Of a DNA stretch of 64,000 nucleotides, positions 3,943 to 60,915 are shown piece by piece. The stretch's first letter is position 1. Each line of letters begins with the position of its first letter. The stretch is from a virus. Its lineage: Duplodnaviria; Heunggongvirae; Uroviricota; Caudoviricetes. The notes beneath the pieces are model-generated. The model did not search any database, was not told the origin of the DNA, and worked only from the letters and a program-made list of their open reading frames with translations. The stretch is taken from positions 287,171 through 351,170 of the IMG/VR virus record IMGVR_UViG_3300028833_000001. One strand, given 5' to 3'. The position numbers were made by a program, and so were the translations under genes.

Positions 3943-6335
3943 TGGAACACATTAAAATTAATCTTGTAAATCCAGTTTATGGCGTTCGTGAAATGCCAAT
4001 ACATTGTTTTTTTATTGAAAACAATATGTTAAAGATAGTTTTTGTTGACGATGAAAACCATAAAATGAATATTGGACAGCATTTAACGTTTGTGCGGTAT
4101 ATTTACGACGATAACGACATATCTACATCTATTCAAGATAATATAGAAGTAATTTCGTTTGATAAATACTATGATAATGGTGTTGAGTACGATTGCGTCT
4201 ATACAACAATACCGCAAAAACGTCGTTTATCGCTAGATAGGACTACGACAGAAAATGTTGTATATTGGGATAAAATTGATAACAGGTATGTTGTTGTTGA
4301 TAATCCGACATTAGGATTTTATGATTATGTTTTCGATGAAAATAATGTTACTGGAATTGATTTATCGTCATTAACAAACGAAGAAATCGATTCTCTTCCA
4401 GAGCATTTATACACAATTGAGGAAAGTATTTACGGTATTAGAAAATTCAAAACGCTGTTCCCAGCTGGAACAATACCAAGTTCAGATATACTGACTTCTA
4501 TTATTATAGAAGCTATGACTAATGAAGGCATAGAAATTCCAGAAGAATATTTAGGAGATAATATATATGATTATATCGATGAGGGCCTTGGTGGCGATAA
4601 TTATGATGGAATGGATTCTACTTTGGACCATTTATACGATATAGGCGCATTTGACATTGATAGATATGACGAATATTTCGTTTTAACGTTTAATGAAAAA
4701 CATGATATCTATCAACAAGATATCGATTTACTGGCCAGCAGCCAAATGACTGGAGAATATTATATTAATGTGTACGATTCAGAAATGAGTAAAATTGGTT
4801 ATTTTCTTGCATTGCATATTCCTTACGTCGATAATTTGCTTCCAGTAGATAAAAAAACGACTTTAACTGAATGGGTTGAACAAACATGCGGTATGTTTGA
4901 TATGGATGGAAATCCATACGATATTACGTATCATAAATATGTTTTTGCCCCAAACAGATTTAGCAAAAAAAGTATTATAGTTAGAAAAGCTGAAACTGGA
5001 TATGTCAGTGAATCACCTATAGATACACCACAAACACTTAATATAAAAAAAATAGAATATCTTTTAGAGCATGGTTTCTGGTTTGAGCCAGCATATACAC
5101 CGTTTTTTTATACAACAACAATTAATAACTCAGAATGGTGCACAATGTGGGACGATATATGGTGGGATTATTATGAAAACAACAACGGAGCTATCCCACA
5201 AAAAAACATTTGGTTTAACAGTGGTAATACACATGTGGCTCTTACAATAGATAATAGTTATTGGAATGTTCCGACATTATTTTCATCTAATGATGAATTT
5301 ACGTCGCTTAATACCGACGAAGACGGTGTTTATAATTTCATTGAAAATACGATATCAAACTCATTACCAAAAGCTATTGATTTTGAAAGAGTTAAATATT
5401 TTCCAGTCATTTTTAATGAAACGCCATCTGGAAACTACACTAAAGCAAGTGAAATAATATATAGGCTACATTTCAGACAGAGAGTCAAAAAAAATGGGCA
5501 AGAAGTGTCTAATATTCCAGAAGAATATAGGCCATATGAAGATGGTTGGTATGTTAATCAAGAATCAGGAAGTACTGTGTGGTGGAATGAAATGCAATAC
5601 TCTTTAACAAAACTAACCAATTCAGAAATGACGGCTTTTGTTTTATCGCAAAACAAAAAATCCGATATGTTGGGGTATCTTAATTTTAATGATGATGATG
5701 TGTTTTTTAGCAAAACTAAACTAACAAAATCTTTTGTTAGATTTTCATTCTACACATCAAAAGACCCTATAGAGCAAAAACTTCTTTATTATTCTACTTC
5801 GTTTTTTGATATTCATGAATTAAGGCAAAAATATATTAAACTTTTGATAAAAAACGGTAGAAAACCAGAAAAAAATGAGCGACCGTTTGTGCTAACTGAT
5901 GATAATGAAAATAGACTTGACAGTACAATAAAATTAACTGATGAACATAATTCAGATAAGTCCAGCGATGGTTTCAATATATACCTATTTTTAGAAGATG
6001 CTCCAATAGAAAATAGTGAAAAAACTATTTATATGAAAGTTGAATTTAACCATGCTGGGAACGGAAAAACTATACCAATGATATTATGGCCTAAAAACAA
6101 TAACGGAAATTATGTCAGTCTTACAACGTCTAATTTTCTTAGTAGTCTTTACATTCCAATTATAATTAAATACATTAATGGAGAATATGTGTATGAAATA
6201 GTTGGTTCACAAGTAAATGGCGATATAATTGAGGTTAGTTTATTTGAGCCAAAACTTGATATAGAAGGTGACGATTTCGTACCAACAACTGGTAATACAG
6301 ATTCAACGAGTGATACACAAACACAAAACACATAA
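3933..6335 (+). CDS. large hypothetical, probable structural protein
   Basis: 800-aa acidic ORF overlapping the previous stop codon. Confidence 0.6.
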   Translation: MLLMEHIKINLVNPVYGVREMPIHCFFIENNMLKIVFVDDENHKMNIGQHLTFVRYIYDDNDISTSIQDNIEVISFDKYYDNGVEYDCVYTTIPQKRRLSLDRTTTENVVYWDKIDNRYVVVDNPTLGFYDYVFDENNVTGIDLSSLTNEEIDSLPEHLYTIEESIYGIRKFKTLFPAGTIPSSDILTSIIIEAMTNEGIEIPEEYLGDNIYDYIDEGLGGDNYDGMDSTLDHLYDIGAFDIDRYDEYFVLTFNEKHDIYQQDIDLLASSQMTGEYYINVYDSEMSKIGYFLALHIPYVDNLLPVDKKTTLTEWVEQTCGMFDMDGNPYDITYHKYVFAPNRFSKKSIIVRKAETGYVSESPIDTPQTLNIKKIEYLLEHGFWFEPAYTPFFYTTTINNSEWCTMWDDIWWDYYENNNGAIPQKNIWFNSGNTHVALTIDNSYWNVPTLFSSNDEFTSLNTDEDGVYNFIENTISNSLPKAIDFERVKYFPVIFNETPSGNYTKASEIIYRLHFRQRVKKNGQEVSNIPEEYRPYEDGWYVNQESGSTVWWNEMQYSLTKLTNSEMTAFVLSQNKKSDMLGYLNFNDDDVFFSKTKLTKSFVRFSFYTSKDPIEQKLLYYSTSFFDIHELRQKYIKLLIKNGRKPEKNERPFVLTDDNENRLDSTIKLTDEHNSDKSSDGFNIYLFLEDAPIENSEKTIYMKVEFNHAGNGKTIPMILWPKNNNGNYVSLTTSNFLSSLYIPIIIKYINGEYVYEIVGSQVNGDIIEVSLFEPKLDIEGDDFVPTTGNTDSTSDTQTQNT

Positions 6336-41951: not shown

Positions 41952-45023
<3,072 letters not shown>

Positions 45024-49747: not shown

Positions 49748-51367
49748 ATGATAAAAATTATTGTTGCAGTAGGTAATTATATCCCAGAAAAGGGGTTTCC
49801 AATTGGAAAAAACGGTGGCTTGGCCTGGAATTTTCCAGAAGACCTTAAATGGTTCAGAAAAACAACTGAACACAATATAGTTGTAATGGGCAGAAACACG
49901 TATAAATCATTCGGAGGTAAGCCATTACAGAATAGAGACAATTATATAGTTTCAAATTCAATGACCGAAATCCCAGAAGGATTTTGCGGGATTTTGCACA
50001 GCATTGATGAAATTGTTGACTTATCTAAAAACCAAATAGGAGACGTGTATATTATTGGTGGCGCAGAGTTATACAGGTCAGTTCTTGACGCTGATATTGT
50101 TGATGAAGTTTTAAACGACTTTATTGATGTTGAAGTTCCAGATGCAGACACATTTTTCCAGCCTTTGGATTTGAATAAGTGGAAAATTGATGAAGAGGGT
50201 ATAAGATTAAGCGATAAATGCACTGTCAATACATTTAAACATGCAAAATTTTTTAATGATGTTGATGAACAATATTTGAATTTGGTGCAAGATGTTATAG
50301 TTAATGGTGAATTGAAAGAAACACGGGCTGGAATGACAAGGTCTGTTTTTGGAAAGCAACTTCGTTTCAACCTTAAAAATGGTTTGCCATTGCTAACAAC
50401 AAAAAAAGTTTACACAAACGGTATCATTCATGAACTTATTTGGTTCCTTAAAGGCGATACGAATATTAAATATCTTGTTGACAATAATGTGCATATATGG
50501 GATGATGACGCATACAGATATTATCTTGAGCTTGTTGAAAAAAACAACGAAGTCTTTAAATGTGATGACACACCATTGTTGAATGCTCATTACTTTGAGC
50601 CTATCACAAAGGAAGAGTTCTTGAAAGCTGTCATTGAAGAAAAAGACTGTTGGTTATACCTGGATAGATTGGCTGGTTTTATGTCATACTATCCAAACAA
50701 CTATTATATTCATTATAAATTTGGCGACCTTGGTCCTGTTTATGGTGAACAATGGAGAAACTGGTATGGCGTTGACCAAATAAAGACAGTTATTGAAACA
50801 TTAAGAACAAATCCAGATGACAGAAGAATGATTGTCTCTGCTTGGAATGTTAAAGAATTGGATAAAATGGCTCTTCCTCCTTGTCATTACTCATTTCAAT
50901 TTTATACAAAAAAAATGGATATTGTAGAAAGAATGAATTGGGCCTTAGAACATAATTTAAATTGTTGGGATGAAAAATCTTTGGATGACAATAATGTACC
51001 TTCACGGAAATTAAGTTGCCTCTGGAATCAACGTAGTGTAGATTCAATATGCGGATTGCCGTTCAATATAGCATCATATGCAATTCTTACTTATATGATT
51101 GCACAATGCTGTAATATGAAACCAGATGAATTGATATTTAATGGTGGAGACGTTCATGTATATGAAAACCATATAGAAGCATTTACAGAACAATTATACA
51201 GAAATCCACATAAATATGCATTACCACAATTGGAGCTTAATCCAAACGTAAAAGAAATTGATGATTTTAGGGCATATGATATTAAAATAGTTGGATATCA
51301 ATCATACCCAGCGATAAAATATCAATTAAATGTAGGCCTAAATAATAACAATGGCGAAGCTAAATAA
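49748..51367 (+). CDS. thyA: bifunctional dihydrofolate reductase-thymidylate synthase
   Basis: N-terminal DHFR (IGKNGGLAW..PEDLKWF, VVMGRNT, IIGGAELY, DTFF) in frame with ThyA (LPPCH, QRSVD, GLPFNIASY, GDVHVY). Confidence 0.95.
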   Translation: MIKIIVAVGNYIPEKGFPIGKNGGLAWNFPEDLKWFRKTTEHNIVVMGRNTYKSFGGKPLQNRDNYIVSNSMTEIPEGFCGILHSIDEIVDLSKNQIGDVYIIGGAELYRSVLDADIVDEVLNDFIDVEVPDADTFFQPLDLNKWKIDEEGIRLSDKCTVNTFKHAKFFNDVDEQYLNLVQDVIVNGELKETRAGMTRSVFGKQLRFNLKNGLPLLTTKKVYTNGIIHELIWFLKGDTNIKYLVDNNVHIWDDDAYRYYLELVEKNNEVFKCDDTPLLNAHYFEPITKEEFLKAVIEEKDCWLYLDRLAGFMSYYPNNYYIHYKFGDLGPVYGEQWRNWYGVDQIKTVIETLRTNPDDRRMIVSAWNVKELDKMALPPCHYSFQFYTKKMDIVERMNWALEHNLNCWDEKSLDDNNVPSRKLSCLWNQRSVDSICGLPFNIASYAILTYMIAQCCNMKPDELIFNGGDVHVYENHIEAFTEQLYRNPHKYALPQLELNPNVKEIDDFRAYDIKIVGYQSYPAIKYQLNVGLNNNNGEAK

Positions 51368-54898: not shown

Positions 54899-55044
54899 GC
54901 TCCTATAGTTCAATGGACAGAACAGAAGTTTCCTATACAAGAGTAAACTTGTTTAAATCATTTCTATGTGAAATTGGTTTTATTGGGTTCGAGTCCCACA
55001 CATAGAACAAACTTCAAATCTTGGTTCGAATCCAAGTAGGAGTA
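54899..55044 (+). tRNA. trnR: tRNA-Arg(CCT) interrupted by a 74-nt insert in the anticodon loop
   Basis: GAAGT-TTCCT[insert]AA-ACTTC. Acceptor, D and T arms are intact. Confidence 0.8.
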
Positions 55045-56291: not shown

Positions 56292-56361
56292 CGGGATGTA
56301 GTTTAATGTTAAAATAATTGTGCTTAGGACAGTGATATAGGTGCGAATCCTATCATCTCGG
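56292..56361 (+). tRNA. Pro-like tRNA paralog with non-canonical anticodon loop (GCTTAGG)
   Basis: Body nearly identical to the next tRNA-Pro and with the same 3' trailer CAAATATTTCATA. T-loop is TGCGAAT. Confidence 0.5.
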
Positions 56362-56394
56362 CAAATATTTCATATAGTATAAACATAATAGCAT

Positions 56395-56527
56395 CGGGAT
56401 GTAGTTTAATTTGGTAAAATGCGTTAATTTTTTCGTGTTTTGTTCTTTAAAAACACAGACAGCAACTTTTCTTTAAAATTATTGTTTTGGGGAAACCGTG
56501 TTATAGGTTCGAATCCTATCATCCCGA
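56395..56527 (+). tRNA. trnP: tRNA-Pro(GGG) with 60-nt insert between positions 28/29
   Basis: CG[56424-56483]GTT-TTGGGGA-AACCG, with C1-G72 and A73. Confidence 0.75.
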
Positions 56528-58585: not shown

Positions 58586-58653
58586 CTTAAAATAAAATTT
58601 ATCCCGAAACGTGTTTTTAGCTTTTTATGACTATTTATAAAAAAAATAGTAAT

Positions 58654-59358
58654 ATGAATAATTTTGAAAATTGCAAATCGTTAAATGACATTGCTAGGCA
58701 AGAATTTGGAAAAGCAAACTATACTAATCGTGAGAAAGCTAAAAAACTATTATTTGAACACGGAATAGATTGGTTAGATTGGCTAGAATCTATTAAAATT
58801 TCTAATAAAAAGTTTTGTCTTGTTTGTGGTAAAGAATTAAGAAATGGTCAAACAAAATTTTGCAGCCATTCATGTTCTGCTGGATATAACAATAAGTTTC
58901 GAAAAACATATAAAGATAATGAAAGCCGAGAACATCATGAAAAAATTACCAAAAGTGACAAATTCTGTTTGTATTGTGGCGCAAAATTAACAAATCAACA
59001 AAAATTATTTTGTAATAATAAATGTCAACAAGATTTCAAGTATAAAGAATATATAGACCGATGGATAAATGGTGATGAAAATGGTTTAAAGGGCCAGTAT
59101 TCTTTATCAAGGCACATCAGGCGATTTTTATTGGAAAAAACAAATTGTAAATGTGAAAAATGTGGCTGGGGAGAAAAAAATCCATATACAAACACAATCC
59201 CATTAGAAATACATCATATTGATGGTGATTATACAAATAACAAGGAAGAGAATCTTCAGGTTTTGTGTCCAAATTGTCATTCTTTAACAGAAACACACAA
59301 ATCACATAATAAGAACGGAAGACAAGGTAGAAGAAAATATTATAAAAAAACAGAATAA
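58654..59358 (+). CDS. HNH homing endonuclease
   Basis: Two CxxCG..FC..C fingers and CEKCG...LEIHHIDGDYTNNKEENLQVLCPNCH. Start set at the second ATG, downstream of ACTATTTAT. Confidence 0.9.
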   Translation: MNNFENCKSLNDIARQEFGKANYTNREKAKKLLFEHGIDWLDWLESIKISNKKFCLVCGKELRNGQTKFCSHSCSAGYNNKFRKTYKDNESREHHEKITKSDKFCLYCGAKLTNQQKLFCNNKCQQDFKYKEYIDRWINGDENGLKGQYSLSRHIRRFLLEKTNCKCEKCGWGEKNPYTNTIPLEIHHIDGDYTNNKEENLQVLCPNCHSLTETHKSHNKNGRQGRRKYYKKTE

Positions 59359-59699: not shown

Positions 59700-59917
59700 C
59701 AAAAGCAAACGAAACCAGTTGACCAGATGGGATAAAACGCATAGTCATCCGTGATGCCACTGCGGATTAATAAATAGATGGCTAAGACGGAGGTAACGTT
59801 ACCGTTTAAACAACTATATTTTTAATGCTGACAGAGCGGGCGTGGAAAGTTCTTGAAATGTTAATATAAAACTGCCAGAATCGCAAAATTGTACGGGTTT
59901 GCACGTGCAAAACTTTT

Positions 59918-59989
59918 GGGGAGGTAGCTCAACGGTAGAGCAACTGGCTGTTAACCAGTAGGTTGTGGGTTCGAAACCCACCCTCCCCG
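59918..59989 (+). tRNA. trnN: tRNA-Asn(GTT)
   Basis: ACTGG-CTGTTAA-CCAGT. Confidence 0.95.
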
Positions 59990-59994
59990 CGAAT

Positions 59995-60407
59995 ATACCA
60001 ATTAACAGTAGGCTTGAAAGCAGCCATCTGATAATGAGTTGCGAGAGGAAGTTTGCGTGGAAGTCATGACTCCGCAAAATAACAAGGCGCATGTGAGTAA
60101 CTTGGCAATAAGCATGTGAGAAACACCTCAGGAATAGCGAACGTGGAAATCCCCGATGCAAAGAAAGGAACACAGTTGAAATACTGTGCGAGGTTCCAGT
60201 AGCGTGACGGTGCATCGAAGCTATGTAGCTAAGTTTTATGTAAGCCCCAACAGTACGAGAGGAACCTGGGGTCAATGGGTGCCATGAATTTGGTTTCTAT
60301 GCCGTAAGTGAGTCGGTAAAGAACGCGAGAAGTATCAAGTGAAGACTCGCGCCCAAAAGCATAAAACAGTCCTTAGAGCATTTGGCGTGGCAGCACATAA
60401 TTGGTAT
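59995..60407 (+). ncRNA. 23S rRNA-mimic RNA: GTPase-associated centre (H42-44) + sarcin-ricin loop
   Basis: Closing helix ATACCAATTA/TAATTGGTAT, H43-like CAGTAGGCTTGAAAGCAGCCATCTG, H44-like GCGTGGCAGCACA, and SRL AGTACGAGAGGAACC at 60252-60266 in a GCCCCA/TGGGGT helix. Confidence 0.85.
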
Positions 60408-60410
60408 TAT

Positions 60411-60482
60411 GCGGGTATAGCACAACGGTTAGTGTGCCAGCTTGCCATGCTGGAAATGTCAGTTCGATTCTGATTACCCGCT
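60411..60482 (+). tRNA. trnG: tRNA-Gly(GCC)
   Basis: CCAGC-TTGCCAT-GCTGG. Confidence 0.93.
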
Positions 60483-60487
60483 CATAT

Positions 60488-60796: not shown

Positions 60797-60915
60797 CGGG
60801 GAGTAGCTCAGTTGGTTAGAGCGCGTAATGTAGATTCTTGTAAAAGAATCAAACAGCAATGTTTACGAATGTCATTTGAAGACCGTGGTCGTGGGTTCGA
60901 GTCCCACCTCCCCAG
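60797..60915 (+). tRNA. Gln(TTG)-anticodon tRNA with 45-nt insert between positions 28/29
   Basis: CG[60826-60870]GTC-ATTTGAA-GACCG, canonical D and T arms, C1.A72 and G73. Confidence 0.7.

Follow-up and report, generated by a model that had tools for sequence, protein, structure and literature searches.

The described structures closest to the RNA analysed here are two elements of 23S ribosomal RNA (rRNA), the GTPase-associated centre (GAC; Escherichia coli positions 1051-1108, the 58-nt uL11/thiostrepton domain) and the sarcin-ricin loop (SRL; helix H95, E. coli positions 2653-2667). Both have counterparts in a 413-nt non-coding RNA gene located at 59995-60407 (+ strand), between tRNA-Asn and tRNA-Gly, in a 64,000-nt stretch of DNA (hereafter the window) from a 361-kb phage. 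The window comprises bases 287171-351170 of IMG/VR record IMGVR_UViG_3300028833_000001, a 361,445-bp virus genome rated complete by CheckV. The phage RNA has the same helices as the rRNA GAC, the same T-loop pair, the same U1060 and A1088, the same 1071/1072 triples and the same covariation pattern. Unlike the rRNA domain, it is free-standing and phage-encoded within a tRNA array, is closed after 10 bp, contains a 345-nt insert and a UUUG linker, has A instead of U at position 1101 and, in this copy, G at 1067, 1095 and 1096. With the rRNA SRL it shares the bulged-G S-turn, the C-G closing pair, the GAGA loop and a Watson-Crick stem; it differs in an extra A (GGAACC), in flanks unlike those of domain VI and in a loop that varies among relatives.

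Off-ribosome copies of the rRNA sites of ribosomal proteins (r-proteins) are likewise present in r-protein operon leaders (L10_leader, L1/L11 operon leader). These are cis-acting 5' untranslated regions in cellular genomes, whereas the phage RNA lies between tRNAs with no r-protein gene downstream, reproduces an entire tertiary domain together with another rRNA element and has no match among the Rfam leaders. Imitation of host RNA is also the logic of described phage decoys, such as the pseudo-ToxI antitoxin mimics (PMC3475682) and the tRNAs that replace nuclease-cut ones; unlike these, the RNA described here would imitate a ribosomal site. T4 rnaC and rnaD (species 1 and 2) resemble the RNA proposed here in being stable non-tRNA RNAs that are encoded in a phage tRNA cluster and freed when the tRNAs are processed. 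Considered as possible family members, they were rejected: neither the H43/H44 motifs nor the SRL is found in them. Finally, GOLLD and ROOL are also several hundred nucleotides long, highly structured, linked to phages and tRNA neighbourhoods (they often lie beside tRNAs) and of unknown function; the phage RNA differs from them in having no Rfam 15 match to either, and neither is, to our knowledge, a copy of a ribosomal functional site.

We know of no free-standing, trans-acting copy of a ribosomal functional centre. The analysis below indicates that hundreds of phages, cultured jumbo phages included, carry an unannotated copy of the GAC, which in one subclade is joined by the other half of the factor-binding site. 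Structural mimicry of the GAC and the SRL is well supported by the comparative data; the function is what we infer. Our confidence is high for the structure and moderate to low for the function. No description of the family was found in the full-text literature; subscription journals lay outside this coverage, and a prior description is possible.

The GTPase-associated centre at the ends of the RNA

Positions were numbered by setting window base 60000 equal to position 1051 of E. coli 23S rRNA, whose sequence was fetched for comparison. In this register, the 5' end of the RNA (60006-60039) reproduces 23S positions 1057-1090 and its 3' end (60385-60397) reproduces 1091-1103; blastn against E. 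coli 23S rRNA aligned 1059-1088. The molecule is closed by a perfect 10-bp helix equivalent to the tip of H42, in which the 5' strand ATACCAATTA (59995-60004, + strand, as are all features of the RNA) faces its exact reverse complement at 60398-60407. Next comes the copy of H43 (60006-60030; 1057-1081), with loop UUGAAAGCA and G at 1067. All six H43 pairs form: C1057-G1081, A1058-U1080, G1059-C1079 and the three GGC/GCC pairs (1062-1064/1074-1076). Downstream are the T-loop AUAAU (60031-60035; 1082-1086), whose tertiary pair is A-U, and GAGU (60036-60039; 1087-1090), which includes A1088. The rest of the domain lies beyond the insert and consists of the H44 hairpin GC-GUGGCA-GC, that is GCGUGGCAGC (60385-60394; 1091-1100, with G at 1095 and 1096), followed by ACA (1101-1103), which ends at 60397. 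U1060, G1071, C1072, A1088, G1091/C1092 and G1099/C1100 are all kept. An earlier reading of this locus, made from the sequence alone, had described the closing helix, the GAC-like ends, the kept positions and the G residues at 1067 and 1095; these claims hold base for base, all coordinates having been checked.

To characterize the fold, 78 distinct 5' halves were gathered via the 3' motif or downstream patterns, so that the H43 stem and T-loop were unconstrained by the search. Covariation was measured by counting the pairs of the named structure and comparing the counts with those in shuffled alignments and with slid partners. The GAC pairs are 98% formed across the 78 sequences, and sliding the partners drops pairing to between 13 and 61%. 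Cells in which both bases of a pair have changed number 99, against 29.7 +/- 5.6 in shuffles, and none of 500 shuffles reaches the observed value. Taken alone, the H43 helix is 98.9% paired, with double changes at four of its six pairs. The closing helix varies in sequence while pairing persists, the mean uninterrupted run being 7.0 bp compared to 1.96 for mismatched partners.

Three differences from E. coli had been called compensatory in the sequence-only reading, and each turns out to be a real covariation that recurs family-wide and is not peculiar to this copy. Pair 1057-1081 is AU in 67 sequences and CG in 11. Pair 1058-1080 takes all four Watson-Crick forms (UA 35, GC 20, AU 19, CG 3, plus one GU). 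The tertiary pair 1082-1086 is UA in 32 of the 78 sequences, CG in 28, AU in 12 and something else in 6. Tertiary constraints are also visible in the base triple 1072.(1092-1099). Among elements retrieved by their 5' half only, those with C1072 have C1092-G1099 in 47 of 48 cases; those with U1072 (n = 28) have U1092-A1099 in 25, U.G in 3 and C-G in none. The window copy is of the C.(C-G) type. Conn, Gutell and Draper are said to have first recognized the triple in rRNA, in 1998, through this same CCG/UUA exchange. U1060 and A1088, which form a long-range pair, do not vary across 76 to 78 sequences; G1071, C1072, A1073 and A1077 are invariant as well, partly by construction, the extraction anchor having partly fixed 1070-1075. 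Altogether, these data show that the GAC fold, tertiary structure included, is under selection.

A peculiarity of the family is a set of fixed departures from every rRNA: A at position 1101, the UUUG linker and the site of the insert at 1090/1091. In addition, Cronobacter phage GAP32 keeps GAGU at 1087-1090, where rRNA of the E. coli type has GAAA. Because of these fixed differences, the sequences indicate that the split GAC is an old, independently evolving lineage rather than the result of repeated captures from hosts.

The insert and its sarcin-ricin-like hairpin

Between 1090 and 1091 the RNA accommodates the 345-nt insert (60040-60384), which ends in the conserved UUUG linker (60381-60384). 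Its layout, derived from sequence and comparative analysis, consists of a 3-bp stalk (Pa) with an adjoining GA/GA, a three-way junction with two further helices (Pb and Pc) and an additional helix (Pd) inside the second domain. The 5' strand of Pa and its junction (UGC and GA, 60040-60044) pairs with GCA at 60378-60380 and faces GA at 60376-60377; Pa is 100% paired, with double changes in two of its three pairs. Domain A (60045-60129) is closed by Pb (GAGG 60045-60048 / CCUC 60126-60129), 92% paired in 14 sequences, with compensatory changes. Domain B (60130-60373), which holds the SRL-like hairpin, is closed by Pc (AGGA 60130-60133 / UCCU 60370-60373), 89% paired with G-C to C-G exchanges. 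Pd was identified by RNAalifold: its 5' strand UUUUAUGU (60234-60241) pairs with GCAUAAAA (60359-60366), enclosing the SRL-like hairpin and two further hairpins. Seven of the eight Pd pairs undergo double changes, and only 69% of cells pair on MAFFT columns owing to register shifts. Altogether, the 37 named pairs of the insert architecture are 91% formed in the 14-sequence alignment, against 30-46% when slid; double changes affect 22 pairs and 99 cells, compared to 16.4 and 32.5 in shuffles.

The SRL-like hairpin spans 60244-60272 and consists of a 6-bp stem, GCCCCA/UGGGGU, an S-turn (AGUA/GAA) and a C-GAGA-G tip. The motif AGUACGAGAGGAACC occupies 60252-60266. Within it, blastn finds AGUACGAGAGGA to be identical to E. 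coli 23S positions 2654-2665 (12 of 12). The 14-mer occurs once in the window, where 0.01 occurrences are expected, and the 12-mer and the H44 motif each occur only once in the whole 361-kb genome. The sequence-only reading had called the SRL exact. This is true of the 12-nt core; past it, the 3' strand reads GGAACC here against GGACC in bacteria (E. coli), with one extra A immediately after the identity. Over its full 15 nt the motif is exact only against the eukaryotic-type SRL. Pairing in the stem reaches 98%, and both bases have changed in 29 cells where shuffles give 7.9 (none of 500 reaches the observed value). The immediate surroundings of the hairpin are kept as well: a 2-nt linker separates it from Pd, the closing pair is G.U in 13 of 14 sequences, and UUAA follows.

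Elements fall into two length classes, of about 235-300 nt and 365-525 nt, and the hairpin belongs to the second. In the initial collection of 14 non-redundant long members, every one has GUAC-N4-GG at a matching position, which is 250-300 nt into the element for 13 members and 384 for the longest. The SRL 12-mer, allowing up to one mismatch, is found in 35 of 37 inserts of at least 300 nt and in 4 of 50 shorter ones. The hairpin accompanies both C1072 and U1072 cores. When metagenome members were added, 34 of 40 distinct hairpin contexts matched AGUACGAGAGGAAC with four mismatches or fewer; among homologous hairpins, G2655, U2656, A2657, C2658, G2663, G2664 and A2665 are near-invariant. The SRL hairpin defines the long-insert clade; it was added to the family and is not universal in it.

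A scan of IMG/VR for the SRL 14-mer returned 118 matches, among which were four family members and no convincing SRL-only RNA; 104 of the 118 matches lack hairpin, GAC or 23S context and have the look of chance or coding sequence. Separately, one IMG/VR contig (L361, 2350-2470) has an apparently genuine fragment of 23S domain VI (GACCGUCGUGAGACAG, then the SRL) amid AT-rich sequence, which could be a captured piece of rRNA or a misassembly.

Two other hairpins were recognized in domain B. The first (60167-60197) has a conserved, T-loop-like UGAAAU loop, kept in relatives L005, L140, L006, L010 and L078, and its stem shows double compensatory changes between the window and L005. The second (60324-60351), CGCGAG/CUCGCG, appears in both the minimum free energy (MFE) and the centroid fold and was checked in the sequence. 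In one SRL-bearing member (L010, 3150-3165), the start of the insert reads AAAGGAGG with an AUG 6 nt later and looks like a ribosome-binding site.

A family of phage RNAs

The split domain recurs on over 200 contigs from phages and metagenomes. In the common layout the closing helix leads into 1056-1090, after which come the insert (from about 60 to over 450 nt), the UUUG linker, the H44 hairpin, ACA and the other strand of the closing helix. On the H44 side the consensus is G(C/U)GUNNNA(G/A)CACA, and the window RNA has every family element. Searching IMG/VR with the H43 18-mer of the window retrieved a close relative (L005) and five distant ones. The 3' motif TTGGCGTAANAGCACA matches at least 120 viral contigs, 87 of which have an rRNA-like H43 in register upstream, corresponding to 76 distinct sequences. 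A pattern running from H43 to the start of the insert found 28 viral (IMG/VR) and 104 metagenome stretches; in cellular genomes, covering 185,579 prokaryote species with one genome each, it found only three contigs, all from metagenome-assembled genomes. The family is thus almost restricted to phages. The U1072 variant of H43 added at least 118 further viral contigs, 33 of them confirmed as complete elements. Short, unannotated members are present in cultured phages, namely Cronobacter GAP32, Pectobacterium CBB, Serratia BF and the Erwinia pEa_SNUABM phages, as well as Xanthomonas XacN1/XbC2/XaC1, Pseudomonas pf16 and Aeromonas 4_4572. Querying 50,697 phage records by blastn gave no match to the element of the window and, for its 10-kb tRNA island, matches to single tRNAs only. 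A tRNA lies within 60 nt of 67 of 157 elements and within 1 kb of 97, in every case on the strand of the element. Among neighbouring proteins no family recurs: when open reading frames (ORFs) within 4 kb of the 157 elements were clustered by blastp, the clusters spanned at most eight loci.

Could the RNA simply be a captured 23S fragment, an assembly chimera or a cis-regulatory r-protein leader? The local identity to 23S rRNA would fit a capture, and one of ten relatives compared with Rfam (L066) gave a sub-threshold match to large-subunit (LSU) rRNA, at 31 bits over model positions 1084-1153. Against this, more than 200 independent contigs share a split architecture with features that no rRNA has. 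A colinear 23S origin was rejected: the region 59985-60415 has no LSU match at E values up to 10, and, the GAC and SRL apart, blastn aligns the insert to E. coli 23S rRNA only in brief, dispersed stretches no better than chance. The best of these, 60078-60105 (28 nt, 82% identical to E. coli 23S 1634-1660), is probably fortuitous: its score is equalled in 6 of 200 shuffles, and beyond the closest relatives the sequence is not kept. As for a leader, no r-protein gene is found nearby or elsewhere in the genome, and the element is flanked by tRNAs instead of preceding an ORF. Explanations of this kind are thus very improbable, being refuted as far as sequence analysis allows, in agreement with the earlier view that this is not a simple rRNA fragment.

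The sequence-only reading had known of no named family for the RNA. Rfam 15 places no family on the element, either in the scan of the window at gathering thresholds or in that of 59985-60415 at E values up to 10; GOLLD, ROOL, OLE, HEARO, raiA and the r-protein leaders are all without a match. The sequence-only reading had predicted no GOLLD/ROOL-type match, as found, together with short partial LSU hits, which for the window element did not appear.

Inserts differ widely between members, from less than 100 to more than 450 nt. The modules CGUACUA and CACCCC-GNAA-type-GGUAAGG recur in otherwise unrelated inserts, while another subset shares a hairpin with a UGAAAU loop (members with recurring modules include L026, L038, L091, L023, L050, L037; L004, L068, L122, L135, L137 and L148). 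From these sequences the inserts look modular. In nine members (L018, L043, L052, L082, L083, L089, L111, L117 and L118) the sequence departs from rRNA after GCAGCCA(G/U), which suggests a second insertion, either replacing or splitting 1078-1086.

Modularity and the wide length range would be expected of an ornate scaffold RNA in which the GAC and SRL modules are mere self-folding blocks and the job is an unrelated one, such as a ROOL/GOLLD-like multimer or a processing or packaging signal. The drift of tetraloop and S-turn in some lineages points the same way, as does the position beside tRNAs, which resembles the setting described for GOLLD and ROOL. However, it would be an odd coincidence for both modules to be the two halves of a single ribosomal site; the GAC copy is rRNA-like even at unpaired positions, the 12-nt SRL core is exact to rRNA in many lineages, and Rfam yields no match to a large RNA, ROOL and GOLLD included. 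We consider a pure scaffold unlikely. Were the modules only scaffolding, this would still be a large, ornate RNA class missing from Rfam and a striking case of the recruitment of rRNA domains into another RNA.

Possible function and genomic setting

The RNA is separated by 4 nt from tRNA-Asn(GUU) upstream (59918-59990, + strand; ARAGORN, and Rfam tRNA model at 76.9 bits) and by 3 nt from tRNA-Gly(GCC) downstream (60411-60483, + strand; ARAGORN and Rfam). These gaps, together with same-strand tRNAs near relatives, agree with the earlier suggestion that the position suits release by tRNA processing. We thus envisage that a stable RNA of about 413-420 nt is transcribed together with the tRNA array and would be excised by the processing enzymes of the flanking tRNAs, 3' processing of tRNA-Asn generating its 5' end and RNase P cleavage at tRNA-Gly its 3' end. 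The two ends fold into a self-closed replica of the GAC (tip of H42, H43 and H44), with its tertiary structure, while the conserved stalk and three-way junction at 1090/1091 hold out the SRL-type hairpin. As candidate functions the sequence-only reading had suggested a decoy for toxins that attack the SRL or the GAC, a sponge for L11/L10 or translational GTPases, or a modulator of the stringent response.

The isolated 58-nt rRNA domain folds by itself and binds uL11 tightly; because of this, a faithful GAC copy should bind host uL11 as well. The resulting replica-uL11 particle could act off the ribosome as a decoy for a host protein that docks on ribosomes. Such a protein is more likely to be a low-copy defence toxin or stress factor (for example, of the RelA type) than one of the abundant elongation factors, since EF-Tu and EF-G would be harder to titrate. 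Toxins aimed at precisely these two sites provide a precedent: Tre23 ADP-ribosylates positions 1095-1098 of H44, while the SRL is cleaved by VapC-mt20/26 (PMC8661411). With such a protein captured, host ribosomes would stay at work for the phage. Searches of the phage genome revealed no uL11, uL10, bL12, uL6, EF-Tu-type GTPase or RelA/SpoT, while the same searches detected these families in 10 to 14 of 14 control genomes; any such partner would therefore be the host's. On the whole, the RNA probably works off the ribosome by imitating the docking site of translation factors, and the full sequence of events (a released RNA, a uL11-binding GAC replica, an off-ribosome decoy) is the best explanation we can offer, one towards which we lean with modest confidence. 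Should the RNA bind uL11 and a docking protein, it would reveal a novel way in which phages counter the host's control of translation or its ribosome-targeting defences. It would also lead to host factors or toxins that recognize the GAC and the SRL, and structural studies would gain a compact natural version of the factor-binding site that folds unaided.

Several observations weigh against the decoy explanation. On the ribosome, A1067 and A1095 contact EF-G, the tRNA elbow and thiostrepton, and in the window copy both are G. Across the family, position 1095 is A in 66 of 76 sequences. Position 1067 is A in 63 of 76 sequences whose H43 loop was unconstrained and in only 14 of 31 long copies, a set in which one of the search patterns introduced some bias. 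The RNA lacks the lower part of H42, which is the uL10 site on the ribosome. The MFE of the whole molecule has a z-score of only -1.44. On the SRL side, the tetraloop is GAGA in just 18 of 34 distinct hairpins and GNRA in 26; besides GGGA and GAAA, relatives have CAGA, CAGC, AGAA, AGGC, AAAA and CAAC. Some long-clade lineages (L160, L166, L172, L178, L198, L246, L255 and L155) retain a hairpin at the SRL position with a degraded S-turn, for instance ACACC/AAUAC in place of AGUAC, or AAGC-GAGA-AAAC. Joint conservation of the SRL with H43/H44, which the sequence-only reading had named as a test of its case, is found in the long-insert clade. Most family members have no SRL, however, and the core function of the family therefore cannot need one. 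Tre23 modifies only translating ribosomes and leaves purified 23S rRNA unmodified (PMC8661411), so a naked decoy would not obviously trap a toxin of this type. Lastly, an invariant core combined with relaxed tips fits uL11 binding better than factor docking.

For this last reason, another explanation stays alive, in which the RNA is a sponge with the sole job of soaking up free or exchangeable host uL11 (and perhaps uL6 at the SRL). uL11 is needed for RelA activation and cells without it are relaxed; with uL11 lost from the ribosomes and RelA not activated, the infected cell would enter a 'relaxed' state, and the insert would serve stability or extra protein contacts. In favour of such a sponge, the GAC does not vary in the parts critical to its fold, whereas the tips that contact factors, 1067 and 1095, are relaxed; the lack of a phage uL11 also agrees with it. 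However, a sponge leaves unexplained why a precise SRL copy was added and kept in the long clade, and stripping tens of thousands of ribosomes per infection cycle would demand very high RNA levels. We regard it as unlikely, to about the same degree as the scaffold. The presence of both modules also raises the idea of a miniature factor-binding site, with GAC-uL11 and SRL set in a 50S-like geometry, that would, away from the ribosome, trap translational GTPases, RelA or ribosome-directed toxins or trigger their GTPase. This idea seems rather unlikely; if true, it would define a viral 'ribosome-fragment mimic' and a previously unknown control of host translation or immunity.

Less probable still is direct engagement of translational GTPases (EF-G, EF-Tu, IF2, RF3, LepA, HflX) by GAC-uL11 and SRL, the RNA acting as an off-ribosome activator or sponge. 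In its favour, the local geometry of the SRL hairpin is conserved, and the GAC and the SRL jointly make up the factor-binding site (PMC8661411). Yet the abundance of EF-Tu and EF-G is far too high for titration, the changes at A1067 and A1095 in this copy and a GAGA loop that is not fixed run counter to factor contact, and a bL12 stalk site is missing from the RNA just as bL12 is from the phage. The off-ribosome decoy built on a GAC-uL11 particle remains the explanation we prefer.

The element stands out in base composition, with 45.8% G+C against 34% in the window; the whole genome has 33.6%. No + strand ORF of 80 or more amino acids covers the region of the element. A minus-strand ORF (59814-60275), which has no Pfam family and overlaps tRNA-Asn, was treated as spurious. 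Scanning for promoters and terminators gave counts not above those in shuffles. ARAGORN detects 26 tRNAs on the + strand, arrayed across window positions 52.7-61.5 kb, to which Rfam adds three insert-carrying tRNA matches of 119-146 nt. These interrupted tRNA genes, with inserts of about 45-75 nt, lie at 54899-55044, 56395-56527 and 60797-60915.

Proteins encoded near the element are phage-like or uninformative. One resembles a primase; others are an HNH endonuclease, a protein with collagen repeats and a fusion of dihydrofolate reductase (DHFR) to thymidylate synthase. The HNH endonuclease-like ORF lies inside the tRNA array (58627-59358, + strand). The collagen triple-helix repeat protein (E 7e-56) is 1023 residues long and is encoded at 41952-45023 (+ strand). 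In the 539-aa fusion protein (49748-51367, + strand), DHFR (residues 15-159) is joined to thymidylate synthase (174-528), an arrangement typical of protists and plants and unusual in a phage. Finally, one tRNA of the array (56292-56362) has anticodon UUA and would read the UAA stop codon (a 'tRNA-Stop' in ARAGORN), and relative L005 has a CUA (amber) suppressor tRNA at 4242-4311; together, they may reflect stop-codon recoding in these phages.

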